A stretch of DNA of 64,000 nucleotides from assembly GCF_029227855.1 (NCBI RefSeq), contig NZ_CP074357.1. The stretch is one strand, 5' to 3'. A program made the position numbers. This stretch comes from Escherichia coli. Lineage in GTDB: Bacteria; Pseudomonadota; Gammaproteobacteria; Enterobacterales; Enterobacteriaceae. Shown piece by piece: positions 34,155 through 46,100 of the stretch; position 1 is the stretch's first letter; each line of letters opens with the position of its first letter.

Positions 34155-37100
34155 TCACCAAAATGCCTTTTTATACCACTGCATAGCTATGCTCGGGATA
34201 CAGTGGCAAACAAAAGCATTTCAATGAATGATTTTTTGGGATACCGACATCAAAAGCATTTGTATGAATGTAAGAGGCGTAATCCACAAAAGGCATTCAC
34301 GTGAATAGAGTGCGCACGAAACCATCTTGCTCCACGGCATTTAATGAATGGGCTAGCATGTACGCTTGAGTCAGAAAGGCATACAGATGAATAGTCAGGA
34401 GTTCGTTTGAAAAGTTACTTTTTTGCACATTAAGCCGAGATGTAAGACCAGTAGTAAAAGAAGCACTAAGCATAGCACTGATAAATAACTTATTTTTCAG
34501 CATGTTATAACCAGTGCATACCTGGTAGCTTTCAACCTTGTTTGGCGAGGGCCAGCTTAGGGCTTCTTTTGAAGATCTGAAATTGTATGTCGCGACCTTT
34601 CTTAACTTCTTGATAATCGAGATATCCGATAGATTCAAGTTCCCGCATTGCTTTACGAATTATCTGGTTTTGCGTACGAATAGGGGTTGTAAGAAGCAAC
34701 CTTTCCCTCAACCGTTTCATATTAACGAACAACGTACCAGCTGGCATTGCTTCAAAATAAATATAGAGAGATTGCGCAGCTTCTTTTTTAGCCAAAATGT
34801 ATAGAACCTGAAGGCTTAACAATGTCTTATGGTCGTAACGATACAGTTCCCACATAGAAGGATCCCCAACCAACTCAACAGTATCGCTTTTTGGATCAAT
34901 CATAGCCTTCTGCACCAGATGCGTTACTGTGAACCGACCACTCCGAGAGTCTGAGAAGGCAAGCACTACCGATGCAAGGTTCATTAATGACTCTTTAAAG
35001 CGCGCACGAGTTCGTTTGTTGATGTTTGTTGAACTGATACCACACATCTTCGCAAACTCGTTAAAAGTCAGGGTAATCTTCTCGGAAGTAAAACCATATT
35101 TACTGAAAGCCATGATGATCCCGAGCCAGCACTTAAAGTCGGTAGACATAGATAGTTTGACACCAGTTATCTTGATGTCGTCATAACCCTCCGATCTTGC
35201 AATTTCCATACACGAAAGCTCATCAGAGGCATCAACTTCAAAGTTTCGGTCGCGGTTTTCTTTTGTGCCGACAGGGGTAAATACACTCAATCTCAACAGG
35301 GCCACGGGCTGAACCGACTTGGACGAGTTAGGCGTCAGTTGATAAGTCTTACCTGATTCATTACTGGTTACGTCAAAAGGATGGATTAACTCGTTGTTTT
35401 TAATCATTAACTTAACTCGTCGGTGATAAGATTTTCATTTGGCAAACTGTTTATAACATATTCTTGCAAATGCTTTTTACGCATTAACCTAAATGCCATA
35501 AGCATTCCAGTAAATGCCTTCCTTATTCATTCAAATGCTTTTCGCATGCATCCGAATGCCGGATCCTTTCATAAAGTCACTATAATCAATGAGTTAAAGA
35601 TGCCGTGATCTTTACTTGAACTCTATTGATCTTTAGTGATCTAAAGAATTGATCTATCCTGTTGAAAACAATGATAAGTCCATATAAAACAAGGAATAGC
35701 GCTCCTTTAACAATATCTACAGATCGCAAACGGAAATGAACGAGGGTCTACTATCATTGTTTTATTCAAGACAGTTTTTATTTTAATTTTATTAAGCAAA
35801 TTTTTTGAGTTTACCTTTTAGATGTATCAGCCCTATTTGGCAAATTTGAGGTTCATGTATCATGTAGTAAACAGGAGGAAGATATGAACAACAGCAAACA
35901 TACAGTCATTGAAGTGGATACTAATCTAGTTGAAATTGAAAAGGGATTTAATCCCCGAGAGGCGGTAATCGGAGATTTGTGTTACGAACAAGAACCTGTC
36001 AAGTCGATGATTGTGTCAATCAAACAAGCCTTTAAGGAAGGAAGGCAGGTTGATATGATCAAGGTCGTAAAAAGAAAAGGTAAATATTTAGTTCGTCAAG
36101 GTCATACTCGTTTTCATGGCTTAAAATTAGCAATTTCTGAAGGTGCTAATATTCCAAAATTATCTGTTATCCTAATCGATTATAAAAACGAAATTGAAGA
36201 ATACCTTGAGAACCTCGATGGTAACAGAAGCAATGGGCTAAATCCGGTTGGGCAAGCTCATGCATTAGCTCATGCTGTTAGTCTCGGGTATTCGGTTGAA
36301 GAACTAGCAATGCGATATCAACGATCAACTACCGCAATTCGTAATATGCTAAAAATCCTTGATATGCCATTAGAGCTTCAACATTTGATTAGCCTAAATC
36401 TAATCAAAAAAACGCTCGCCATTGAAATAATGTTAAAATATTCCAACGATCACAAAATGGTTTTAAAACATATAGAAGGTTTCTTACCTGGCGTTAAGAA
36501 TATTGAGACTACAACGAGCAAAATTGTAGGCATACCTGAACACAATGCAGCTGGAGCAGGACCAGACACCTTAAATAAAGGCGGACCAGAAAAGAAAAAT
36601 TCGGCAGTCACTCGTAAGACTTTGGGTATTAAGCGCCTCTCGCATAAGAAAACAGAACGGCTAAAATCTGAATTTCTTGAGCTTGTGGAAAGTACACATA
36701 CGGAATCTATAACGAATACTCAAACAGAACTAAAATTTGGTAGAGATAGTGCACACTTGTTCAAAAATGTTAATAGTAATAATGTAATATTTTCCAATGA
36801 TGGTGTTCAAATAATCTTGAATGATGAAAAGCTAAATATTTTATTGTCTTTACTTAACGACGAAAATACAGCAATCATTGTTTCTAAACCAAAATTAGAA
36901 GAGCTTCTGGAAATTCGAGATCTCCTTAAGGAATATTAAAAACGAGGATTAGTTGAGTGATTAAACCTATAAAGCTGACTCTTATCGATAATTATAGTGA
37001 TTTGCTTCTAACTCATGAAGTCCTTAAACGCAACATGGAAGAGTTAGAACACGGTAAACGTTTTGATCAATTTCCTGAAGGGCATGACCACTATGAAAAA

Positions 37101-43100: not shown

Positions 43101-46100
43101 TTCTTCCATTATCTCTTCAGGGGCTCGATAACCTTTTGGGGGAAGAATTCCGGACGGAATGGATGGACGTTTTTGAGAACGAGTTTGAAAACACGACCGT
43201 TTCGGTTCGCATCCTGTACGCCGAACGTATTCAACAAGAGGAAGTCCTATGAGCAACCAACCCACCAGCCTGCCAGAAGAAGATATTGAGTTTGTTATGG
43301 ATACCTTTCAGAGGAGCATGGGTAAATCCAAGCCTGTCAGGGATACTCAACTAGAGGGTGAGAAACCGCAAAGTAAAGAGTCCGCAAACTCAACTGAAAA
43401 CCCCGGTTATGAAGAATTCTATTAATTACGCTCATGATATCCTGGTGCAGTTATTTAGAATGATATTTGAGGGATGGGGGACATTGTGATTAAAAGGCGT
43501 AACATTCGACGATCAGTTTATGGATTGCTTATTGTTCTTATCGCCGGAAATGTGTGGTTAGGCCGTAAGCGTCGTCTGAGTACCGTCTGGTCCCGAATCC
43601 AGGATCCTGTAACTTAAGCACCCACTTATTTTGCAGGTGGACACCTCATGCGCGCTAAAGAAAGACTTCCCCGGAAACACTATTCCCCTGAATTCAAAAT
43701 GGAACTGGTCAGGCTGGCTCTTGAAGAAGAAGGCAGTATTGCCGCACTGGCCCGGAAACATGACGTCAATGATAACCTGCTCTTTAAATGGATAAGGCTC
43801 TGGCAGCGTGAAGGGCGGGTCTGTCGGCCCCGAAAAAACTCATCGTCGCTTCCTGCCCTGATACCCGTGCAGCTTCAGGCGGGCTCTTCTCTCCCAACCT
43901 TCGAACTACCATCCTGCTCTCCTCCCGCTACCTGCCACATAAAATGTCGGGGAGGAGAAATAACACTGACTCATCCCTCTGCTGAACTCATGAGCACTGT
44001 CCTGCGCGAACTGATGCGGGGGCCTGTATGATAAATCTTCCCGCAGGCACAAAAATCTGGCTGGTTGCCGGTATCACCGATATGCGCAACGGCTTCAATG
44101 GCCTCGCCGCAAAGGTGCAGACCGCGCTGAAAGATGACCCGATGTCCGGCCACGTCTTCATCTTCCGGGGACGCAGCGGCAGTCAGGTAAAACTGCTCTG
44201 GTCCACCGGCGATGGTCTGTGCCTGCTGACAAAGCGACTGGAACGTGGTCGCTTCGCCTGGCCCTCAGCCCGCGATGGCAAAGTGTTCCTGACGCCGGCG
44301 CAACTGGCGATGCTGATGGAAGGTATCGACTGGCGACAGCCAAAGCGGTTACTGACATCCCTGACCATGTTGTAGCGCTCTTTATCCTGGTTGTCGCAGA
44401 ATAAGCCTGGTAAAATACAGGCTTATGAACGACACCTCTTCTGACGACATCCTTCTGCTGAAACAGCGCCTGGCCGAACAGGAAGCGTTGATCCACGCCC
44501 TGCAGGAAAAGCTGAGCAACCGGGAACGCGAAATAGACCATCTGCAGGCGCAACTGGATAAGCTGCGCCGGATGAACTTCGGCAGTCGTTCCGAAAAGGT
44601 ATCCCGCCGTATCGCGCAAATGGAAGCTGACCTGAACCTGCTGCAGCAGGAAAGCGATACGCTGACCGGCCGGGTGGATGACCCGGCAGTGCAGCGCCCG
44701 CTGCGTCAGACCCGCACCCGCAAACCGTTCCCTGAGTCACTCCCACGGGATGAGAAGCGGCTGCTGCCGACTGAGCCGTGTTGCCCGGAGTGCGGTGGTT
44801 CGCTGAGTTACCTGGGTGAGGATGCCGCCGAACAGCTGGAGCTGATGCGCAGCGCCTTCCGGGTTATCCGGACAGTCCGTGAAAAGCATGCCTGCCGTCG
44901 GTGCGATCGCATCGTTCAGGCCCCGGCTCCTTCGCGCCCCATCGAACGGGGGATCGCCGGACCGGGGCTGCTGGCCCGAGTGCTGACCTCAAAGTATGCA
45001 GAGCACACACCGCTGTATCGCCAGTCGGAGATCTATGCCCGCCAGGGTGTAGTGTTGAGTCGTTCTGTACTGTCGGGCTGGGTGGATGCGTGTTGTCGTC
45101 TGCTGGCACCGCTGGATGAAGCCCTTCAGCACTATGTCCTGACCGACGGCAAACTCCATGCTGACGATACGCCTGTCCCGGTGCTGTTGCCAGGCAATAA
45201 GAAGACGAAGACCGGGCGCTTATGGACGTACGTTCGAGACGACCGCAACGCCGGATCAGCGCTGGCCCCCGCAGTGTGGTTCGCTTACAGCCCGGACAGA
45301 AAAGGTATCCACCCTCAGACCCATCTTGCAGGCTTCAGTGGCGTACTGCAGGCTGATGCCTACGCCGGGTTCAACGAGCTCTACCGCGACGGCCATATAA
45401 AGGAAGCCGCGTGCTGGGCCCATGCCCGCCGAAAAATCCACGATGTTCACGTCCGTACCCCGTCAGCCCTGACGGAGGAGGCGCTGAAACGGATCGGCGA
45501 GCTGTATGCCATCGAGTCGGAGCTCAGAGGTAAAAGAGCAGAGGAACGGCAGGCAGTCCGGCACCAAAAAGTGCTGCCGCTGCTGGCGTCACTGGAGGGG
45601 TGGCTGCGGGAGAAACAGAAAACCCTCTCAAGGCACTCAGAACTGGCGAAGGCGTTCGGGTATGCGCTGAACCAGTGGCCGGCGCTGACCCGCTATGCAG
45701 AAGATGGCTGGGTGGAGGTGGATAATAACATTGCCGAAAACGCCCTACGACTGGTCAGTCTGGGGAGAAAAAACTGGCTGTTCTTCGGCTCGGATCATGG
45801 TGGTGAGCGCGGTGCGTCACTGTACAGTCTTATCGGGACGTGCAAATTAAACGGCGTGGATCCGGAACGCTATCTGCATCATGTACTTGATGTCATCGCC
45901 GACTGGCCTGTGAACCGGGTGGGTGCTCTGCTCCCGTGGCGGGTTACTCTGCCTGCCTGACCAGCTTCACTTCGTCAATACGGTTCTCACTGCACGCTTA
46001 CGTTAGGCCTTAGAGCTGATAAAATTCATAAAGTGCGTTATCAGGATTTCTGGTCACCGGCAACTGTGATTAAAGTAACTGTAATGCCTTCAACGAATGA

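Follow-up and report, generated by a model that had tools for sequence, protein, structure and literature searches.

KorB of the IncP plasmid RK2 is a global repressor and a sliding clamp dependent on cytidine triphosphate (CTP), for which the plasmid carries twelve palindromic OB operators of 13 base pairs (bp). Thermosensitive conjugation of IncHI plasmids depends on HtdA, TrhR/TrhY, and H-NS. VirB, encoded by the Shigella plasmid pINV, is an orphan ParB-like CTP switch that counters H-NS silencing (PMC10770331), and HerB (YfjB) of the F plasmid, a protein of 652 amino acids (aa) with four domains D1 to D4 (D3, 238-417; D4, 418-652, dimerisation core), is encoded in the leading region, undergoes zygotic induction, and binds to the chromosome of its host (PMC13370423). 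Here, we describe a block of genes in a stretch of 64,000 nucleotides (nt) of the Escherichia coli contig NZ_CP074357.1 (assembly GCF_029227855.1), referred to as the window, which encodes two predicted ParB-class proteins, ParB-like 1 and ParB-like 2, next to DNA methyltransferases, and a 13-bp palindrome dispersed over the plasmid, for which ParB-like 2 is a candidate binder. The plasmid-wide palindrome is a new finding of this analysis; no mention of the sequence in this context and no functional study of the palindrome, of DUF4942, or of R0042, the ParB-like 2 homologue of plasmid R27, was found in the literature searched.

The window is IncHI2 (R478-like) backbone and contains both the RepHIA and the RepHI2 replicon; a representative plasmid types as IncHI2A, MOBH, and MPF_F. 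Plasmids of the IncHI1 and IncHI2 groups rank among the major carriers of multidrug and colistin resistance, and over 1300 sequenced plasmids contain the block: 1330 plasmid records match bases 35500-43600, 867 of them at 99% identity or more. Their hosts are Escherichia, Salmonella, Enterobacter, and relatives, and the plasmids are conjugative and, among the records listed, about 210-450 kb in size. Synteny of the block extends to IncHI1 plasmids (pEQ2; R27, as R0037-R0044), a Buttiauxella plasmid, and two contigs from metagenomes or assemblies. It forms a conserved part of the backbone of conjugative H-type (MOBH/MPF_F) plasmids, where it adjoins the Tra2 transfer region, and is no single "system"; as in the first-pass annotation of this DNA, no named system covering it was found. 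That annotation had also given the series of open reading frames (ORFs) as 35884-43425, and its coordinates and all of its sequence observations were confirmed. The features of the block are:

35884..36939, plus strand: ParB-like 1, 351 aa, homologue of R27 R0037, predicted orphan ParB/KorB-class protein (phrog_1033, 6.8e-25)
36957..37157, plus strand: 66-aa ORF
37154..37870, plus strand: 238-aa protein with an N-terminal CxxCxGxG (DnaJ-type) zinc finger, matched by DnaJ and anti-TRAP models
38105..38959, plus strand: 285-aa ORF, homologue of R27 R0040
38968..39741, minus strand: Dam-family N6-adenine DNA methyltransferase, homologue of R27 R0041, divergent from ParB-like 2 (TIGR00571)
40150..41313, plus strand: ParB-like 2, 387 aa, homologue of the R27 "partition protein" R0042, transcribed alone
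41403..41429, plus strand: intrinsic terminator after ParB-like 2, GCCCCG-loop-CGGGGC with a T-run, conserved in three lineages
41561..43252, plus strand: 563-aa protein, DUF4942 plus gamma-class (NPPF) N6-adenine methyltransferase, homologue of R27 R0043 (phrog_6263)
43249..43425, plus strand: acidic 58-aa ORF (acidic residues, 12; basic residues, 6), with an overlap with the stop codon of the methyltransferase gene

When the sequences that precede ParB-like 2 in four lineages were footprinted, a conserved A5-GTAC-C-T5 block stood out. The 13-bp palindrome AAAAGTWACTTTT occurs at 16 sites of the window with at most one mismatch, compared to 0.24 expected and to a maximum of 2 in 100 shuffles, and seven of the sites are perfect. 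In an unbiased scan, it was the sole over-represented palindrome of the window, with nine perfect AAAAGT-N-ACTTTT matches against a null maximum of 2. Of the 16 sites, nine fall between genes, compared to a non-coding share of 27% of the window (P=0.013), and a start codon is no more than 11 nt away from two others; many sites are located inside genes or far from start codons. The following sites of the window bear on the argument:

31666..31678: palindrome copy, 242 nt upstream of trhA (pilin operon)
34410..34422: perfect copy in the trhA-RepHIA spacer, which is split by IS21 in the window
38194..38206: perfect copy AAAAGTTACTTTT at the 5' end of the 285-aa ORF
40058..40070: variant AAAAGTACCTTTT, 80 nt upstream of ParB-like 2
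48137-48149 and 48202-48214: two perfect copies, 221 and 156 nt upstream of an 818-aa DUF4165/Big gene (48370-50826)

In each of the ten H-type lineages that have an orthologue of ParB-like 2 (36-100% identity), the palindrome was present, and a copy always preceded the orthologue at a distance of 14-300 nt. The variant AAAAGTACCTTTT is retained in IncHI1, Buttiauxella, and P. tasmaniensis, and sites equivalent to the pair at 48137..48214 were found in other lineages. In the 139 kb of R27 that were examined, 31 sites were counted; the mobI-trhR spacer holds two of them, the start of trhH one, and two follow trhG. The pNDM-MAR-type loci contain 10-12 copies in 13-15 kb. No copy was found at the IncC, IncI1, and phage loci. 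A distant member of the ParB-like family on a 356-kb metagenome scaffold (L018) is preceded, within about 330 nt upstream of the gene, by three copies of AAAAGTAT-S-ATAC(TTTT) (5670-5830), the arms of which resemble those of the IncH palindrome. Apart from this triplet, unbiased palindrome searches at IncC and two distant-family loci returned no equivalent dispersed site, these loci being short and the power of the search low.

The two ParB-like proteins are 30% identical over 174 aa (E 9e-22), with the similarity confined to the N-terminal and helix-turn-helix (HTH) parts and the alignment including both GFNxRE and VRQGHxR. On the basis of sequence, they are true paralogues, in agreement with the first-pass annotation, which had related them by their FNxRE and RQGHxR motifs. 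Each protein matches TIGR00180 (parB_part) and the Pfam domain HTH_ParB (PF17762; 1.5e-5 and 1.7e-4), and both are assigned to a single phage family, phrog_1033. Solved structures of ParB, Noc, and KorB were matched weakly by the single sequences; a 77-sequence profile matched Spo0J/ParB/Noc at 4e-18 to 4e-14 and KorB at 1e-7, spanning the nucleotide-binding and HTH domains. The AlphaFold2 monomer model of ParB-like 2 (pLDDT 89.3) superposes on ParB bound to CTP or cytidine diphosphate, on Noc, and on KorB, the top TM-score being that to the KorB-KorA complex 8qa9, and it closes with two long helices (281-304 and 325-356), that is, with a helical C-terminus. N71 and R73 of Box I and G121 and R124 of Box II are invariant across the 77 sequences. 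ParB-like 1 and ParB-like 2 are therefore assigned to the ParB/Noc/KorB class as orphan DNA-binding proteins, neither nuclease-type nor partition proteins, and the former label "nuclease-domain" gives way to a nucleotide-binding fold with a ParB HTH. A role as ParB-fold nucleases or NTPases attacking DNA, of the Osa- or sulfiredoxin-like kind, is hardly credible: the N-terminal ParB/Srx fold is indeed shared, and sulfiredoxin appeared at rank 33 of the fold search, but a full ParB HTH and a helical C-terminal region are present and the best sequence and fold matches are all to DNA-clamp proteins of the ParB/Noc/KorB type.

By sequence, the two proteins belong to a large uncharacterised family of mobile elements and phages: a profile of both paralogues and their relatives collected 181 representative clusters at E<=1e-30 and 2434 at E<=1e-10, most of them of 300-400 aa. 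R27 encodes a third paralogue, a 401-aa ORF at 92336-93541 (L022 4337-5542) that is 30% identical to ParB-like 2. Two copies of the palindrome precede it, at 94 and 212 nt, and the gene itself is located between hok and Tra1, in a group of small plus-strand genes. Searches of IncHI2 records with ParB-like 2 by tblastn gave matches in three places, so that a third paralogue is probably present there too. The R27 "partition protein" R0153, located beside a cytosine methylase, was considered as a further family member and rejected, as ParB-like 1 and 2 had no tblastn match at 133-180 kb (E 1e-3).

R0042, the R27 homologue of ParB-like 2, gave array signals of 6132 units at 25 °C and 2278 units at 37 °C, which are among the highest of the plasmid, and was 3.35-fold up in an htdA mutant (PMC7366339). 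We tentatively propose, at a confidence just short of calling it probable, that ParB-like 2 is a KorB- or VirB-like regulator that loads at the palindromes. The protein, which is abundant in R27 and rises further under conjugation-permissive conditions, would dimerise and would recognise the plasmid-wide AAAAGTWACTTTT by its HTH; in the nucleotide-bound state it would clamp or spread on the DNA and modulate promoters, like KorB on RK2 or VirB against H-NS. Transfer genes would be among its targets, as would further genes of the backbone, its own gene included. The HTH class, the abundance, the co-presence with the site, and the copy always found before its own gene suggest ParB-like 2 as the player, and the intragenic and promoter-distant sites are what one would expect if a sliding or spreading protein loaded there. 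The single step that ParB-like 2 binds the palindrome we regard as quite possible, leaning slightly to the negative. The first-pass annotation had named a placement in the KorB/ParB class with cognate sites as the outcome opposed to its own reading; the class was borne out and candidate sites exist, binding at them being a prediction, so that this outcome was reached by half.

Several points weigh against a role of ParB-like 2 at the palindrome. No copy was found in the region upstream of ParB-like 1 itself. In Box III the ENxxR motif is absent, DG in ParB-like 1 and 2 and TS in the wider family being aligned with EN, and CTP hydrolysis or even CTP as the ligand is therefore uncertain; according to a survey, the ParB-type fold can also bind adenosine or guanosine triphosphate (PMC12704722). 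C-terminal dimerisation is read from a monomer model and is to that extent a prediction. The recognition helix of the HTH differs among ParB-like 2 orthologues (KSPTTISSLIRL, ISEMAVRQIISL, VSAVTVTNYIRL) while the palindrome is invariant, and the computed evidence would fit plasmid regulators other than ParB-like 2 as well. One further candidate binder is the product of a Tra2 gene (26334-26816, minus strand; 160 aa), which PGAP annotates as "transcriptional regulator" and for which no family match was found; 18 nt past the 3' end of the gene, upstream of htdT, is a perfect copy of the palindrome.

The circuit of HtdA, TrhR, and TrhY is a serious rival. Mutation of htdA derepresses most R27 genes, and the palindrome-bearing R0040, R0045, and trhA respond strongly (18.6-fold, 8.35-fold, and about 8.5-fold, respectively), R0040 being the most derepressed gene of the block, whereas the palindrome-less methyltransferase gene R0043 rises just 1.5-fold (PMC7366339). 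This pattern fits HtdA or TrhR/TrhY as the binder equally well, and the palindrome could be the operator of the HtdA-TrhR/TrhY circuit, with the ParB-like proteins as mere members of the regulon that bind other DNA or act on the host chromosome. The copies in the mobI-trhR spacer and by the tra operons agree with this explanation, as does a constant palindrome facing a variable recognition helix. However, neither Pfam nor NCBIfam nor PHROGs recognises a DNA-binding domain in HtdA, TrhR, or TrhY, although the lack of an informative domain for HtdA and TrhR in Pfam and for all three proteins in PHROGs neither excludes nor supports them as binders; intragenic and remote sites suit the loading of a ParB-type sliding protein better than an activator working from a fixed position, and copies are retained upstream of every ParB-like 2 gene and of the third paralogue in R27. 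We thus consider an operator of the HtdA circuit rather unlikely. No paper describing a DNA operator for the circuit of HtdA, TrhR/TrhY, and H-NS was found in the literature searched. By analogy, HtdA could also act together with ParB-like 2, as KorA does with KorB. In its most far-reaching form the proposal for ParB-like 2 is speculative and on the doubtful side: the protein would be the missing DNA-binding part of IncHI control, a nucleotide-gated clamp with about 40 AAAAGTWACTTTT sites per plasmid that, together with HtdA or in opposition to H-NS, sets the thermoregulated expression of transfer and backbone genes.

A further explanation makes the ParB-like proteins accessory partition or replication-control proteins of the adjacent RepHIA replicon. 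The features concerned are:

15193..17447, minus strand: the real partition operon of the plasmid, ParA (16194-17447) and ParB (15193-16197)
34532-35407: RepB-type RepHIA initiator
35408..35883: origin-like spacer between RepHIA and ParB-like 1, with AAATGC repeats

ParB-like 1 starts 476 nt from RepHIA, with the origin-like spacer in between, and the R27 annotators labelled R0042 a "partition protein". In the Buttiauxella plasmid (L011 1473-1791), five copies of AAAGTACTTT, which is the palindrome minus its central base, are spaced by 62 bp, with a last gap of 123 bp, upstream of a Rep3 initiator gene; the array looks like an iteron or centromere array made from the same half-sites. The following findings nevertheless render this explanation very improbable. 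No ParA adjoins either ParB-like gene, as had been noticed before, and the single ParA of the window is paired with its own ParB in an operon 18 kb away from the ParB-like genes, the homologues of which were identified in R27, a plasmid that has a ParM module as well. The ParA-stimulating motif LG(R/K)GL is absent from both ParB-like proteins, and ParB-like 1, which begins 10 residues before Box I without an N-terminal extension, cannot carry such a peptide. Clustered centromere repeats were not detected next to the ParB-like operon, the palindromes being dispersed across the whole backbone. In locus L026, finally, the same cluster follows straight after trhA without a replicon, and the adjacency to RepHIA is therefore incidental. 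As separate observations, the RepHIA/ParB-like 1 spacer contains five GATC sites in about 130 bp (35600-35725), the plasmid's own Dam-family gene being 3 kb off, and with its AAATGC repeats this segment looks, by sequence, like a Dam-sensitive origin; in a pNDM-MAR-type plasmid (L016 11124-12600), AACAAC-N3-GTTGTT is repeated 7-10 times upstream of a ParA-like gene, in many cases at intervals of about 131 bp, and probably represents the centromere of that plasmid.

The first-pass annotation had seen in each ParB-like gene the head of a module, that of ParB-like 2 including the 563-aa methyltransferase. For ParB-like 1 this view was upheld: it is followed by the 66-aa ORF, which is kept in every lineage with ParB-like 1, and by the zinc-finger gene, which overlaps the 66-aa ORF by 4 nt and whose CxxCxGxG match was reproduced. 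These genes probably form one operon with ParB-like 1 in the first position, since they are tightly spaced or overlapping and always co-occur; in the published R27 arrays its expression level is low. For ParB-like 2 the view has to be abandoned. The terminator assigned to this gene, a hairpin with a T-run, was found and is conserved; it separates the gene from the methyltransferase, and in R27 expression of the two is about 28-fold apart in the arrays, R0043 showing 217 units at 25 °C and 394 units at 37 °C (PMC7366339). The DUF4942-methyltransferase is moreover dispensable in several lineages: pNDM-MAR-type plasmids and Photorhabdus heterorhabditis lack it beside ParB-like 2, and in P. tasmaniensis the gene is fragmented. 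Conversely, the full-length enzyme occurs alone, in the early or nin region, in SSU5-type phage-plasmids and in Pseudomonas and Aeromonas phages, and no ParB-like neighbour was present among the phage loci examined. The block thus consists of five independent units, namely ParB-like 1 with the 66-aa ORF and the zinc-finger gene, the 285-aa ORF, the Dam-family gene, ParB-like 2, and the methyltransferase with the 58-aa ORF, and the nearness of the methyltransferases to the ParB-like genes reflects a shared accessory neighbourhood and not a functional pair, which corrects the idea of a ParB-like gene and its neighbouring methyltransferase as a unit for this block. Separation of the transcription units and the class assignment of the ParB-like proteins are, taken together, held with high confidence.

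The methyltransferase assignments themselves proved correct. The Dam-family enzyme matches TIGR00571 with 228 bits (curated cutoff 114.85) and stays under the equivalog cutoff of E. coli Dam; when the ORF is extended mechanically, it reaches a TTG at 39801. In the 563-aa protein, DUF4942 covers residues 96-290 and the NPPF motif of the methyltransferase domain is located at residue 486, as motif IV in a Rossmann fold; the protein has a full-length profile match to phrog_6263 (1.6e-112), and its top fold matches include ribosomal RNA and DNA N6-adenine methyltransferases alike. No solved structural relative of DUF4942 emerged from two structure searches. In every lineage in which the methyltransferase of the block is intact, the 58-aa ORF comes next. 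A perfect palindrome of a different sequence, AACCTATTAGGTT (41497..41509), lies about 55 nt upstream of the 563-aa gene start and is conserved in three lineages with a conserved block after it; having a single occurrence in the window, it was ruled out as a dispersed operator and, judging from its position and conservation, is probably a dedicated operator of the methyltransferase gene for some regulator. The third copy of the methyltransferase domain was found to be real and to lie on the minus strand:

60362..61123, minus strand: 253-aa methyltransferase encoded on its own, with homology to the C-terminal third of the 563-aa protein

It shares 27% identity over 183 aa with the 563-aa enzyme (E 5e-12), the shared part being limited to the catalytic domain and a short N-terminal segment, and it resembles domains of giant phage proteins. 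A restriction partner was not found near any of the methyltransferases, and the Dam-family, DUF4942, and 253-aa enzymes are most likely separate orphan enzymes that protect or mark plasmid DNA.

These enzymes bring up the earlier suggestion that the block is anti-restriction or establishment cargo of a leading region, in which the ParB-like proteins act with their neighbours just after entry, like HerB/YfjB and M.EcoGIX. Distant family members do lie beside genes of anti-restriction type (MPTase-PolyVal, Lar, C5 methylases, and DUF5983), an orphan family member of IncC plasmids is followed at 1 kb by a methyltransferase, phages encode the DUF4942-methyltransferase in their early or nin regions, and the F-plasmid protein HerB is itself an orphan ParB-like protein of the leading region (PMC13370423). 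In the IncI1 plasmid pESBL-EA11 (L009 6722-7570), moreover, a stand-alone DUF4942 protein of 282 aa is encoded by the leading-region gene nearest to nikA and the origin of transfer (oriT). Since this protein is DUF4942 alone, the domain can act without a fused methyltransferase; it was also considered as a hidden methyltransferase, possibly M.EcoGIX, which was rejected for the absence of motif IV. However, the location in R27 does not agree with leading-region cargo: the cluster occupies 40.9-48.5 kb, in what the R27 authors regard as the Tra1-Tra2 intergenic region, about 60 kb away from the MobH relaxase (103.9-106.9 kb) and mobI (107.7-108.1 kb), beside which oriT is presumably located. Furthermore, ParB-like 2 is among the top-expressed genes of established R27 cells rather than a transient zygotic gene, it forms a unit separate from a methyltransferase that several lineages lack, and the PADLOC defence models returned no match for either ParB-like protein and generic methyltransferase matches only. 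A function in establishment is therefore improbable, and regulation by ParB-like 2 at the dispersed palindrome is the explanation that we prefer.

The 285-aa ORF has no family match in the profile libraries. A conserved palindrome copy lies 68-89 nt inside its annotated start in IncHI2, IncHI1, and P. tasmaniensis; the start is therefore doubtful, probably being annotated too far upstream, and the true one may be located more downstream. Beyond the block, the window contains:

21813-31451: Tra2 transfer region, trhC to trhA
32149-33950: IS21 element, splitting the trhA-RepHIA spacer; other IncHI2 records are without this insertion
43648-45960 and 46277-47245: IS66 and IS5 elements between the 58-aa ORF and the Ig-like gene
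48370-50826 and 56488-58908 (the latter on the minus strand): DUF4165/Big-domain proteins of 818 and 806 aa, paralogues of R27 RSP2

For the Ig-like gene that follows the cluster, an identity as RSP (R0009) was considered and rejected, as RSP sits inside Tra2 and the gene is a DUF4165/Big paralogue of RSP2. RSP2 has been reported in an mSphere paper as absent from IncHI2, where the paralogues may have escaped the nucleotide BLAST.

Compared with described systems, the 563-aa protein is similar to the phage enzymes of phrog_6263 (about 31% identity over 81-96% of the length), which are likewise orphans without a restriction partner, but it has a ParB-like neighbour, whereas the phage copies are located in the early or nin region. 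Like the plasmid-encoded M.EcoGIX and M.BceJIII, which are single-strand-specific and have been proposed to protect incoming DNA (PMC7736820), the methyltransferases are orphans; those enzymes, however, are beta-class (DPPY) and encoded in the leading region, whereas the enzymes described here are gamma-class (NPPF) and not near oriT. With HerB/YfjB, which binds CTP and has no partition role (PMC13370423), the ParB-like proteins share the character of orphan ParB-like and HTH proteins of a conjugative plasmid, but they are smaller (351 and 387 aa), encoded far from oriT, and, in the case of ParB-like 2, expressed at steady state, and neither contains D1-D4 with at least 80% coverage of each, by which the HerB family is defined. 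VirB is similar in being an orphan ParB-class protein of a large plasmid of enterobacteria, the genes of which are silenced by H-NS and regulated by temperature, and it acts, as ParB-like 2 could act, from inverted-repeat sites remote from promoters; a specific sequence relationship was not found, however, and the IncHI palindrome differs from virS.

KorB is a close parallel. Like KorB, ParB-like 2 is a plasmid-encoded protein with a ParB N-domain and an HTH, its best superposition is on the KorB-KorA complex 8qa9, and its host plasmid carries a dispersed 13-bp palindrome in or near promoters, including that of its own gene, as candidate sites. Unlike KorB, it is not an orthologue, the profile being closer to chromosomal ParB (Spo0J, 4e-18) than to KorB (1e-7); there is no adjacent ParA (IncC in RK2), no KorA-like gene was recognised among the neighbours, the operator is unrelated (AAAAGTWACTTTT compared to TTTAGCSGCTAAA of KorB), and the C-terminus is predicted to be helical, from which the C-terminal domain of KorB differs. 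A palindrome combined with an abundant ParB/KorB-class protein that has a copy before its own gene represents a testable candidate link in IncHI control. If this is true, the work on KorB, VirB, and HerB as orphan ParB switches would be extended to a clinically important plasmid family, and a second, independently evolved global circuit of the KorB type would operate on the plasmids that spread mcr and other last-line resistance genes.

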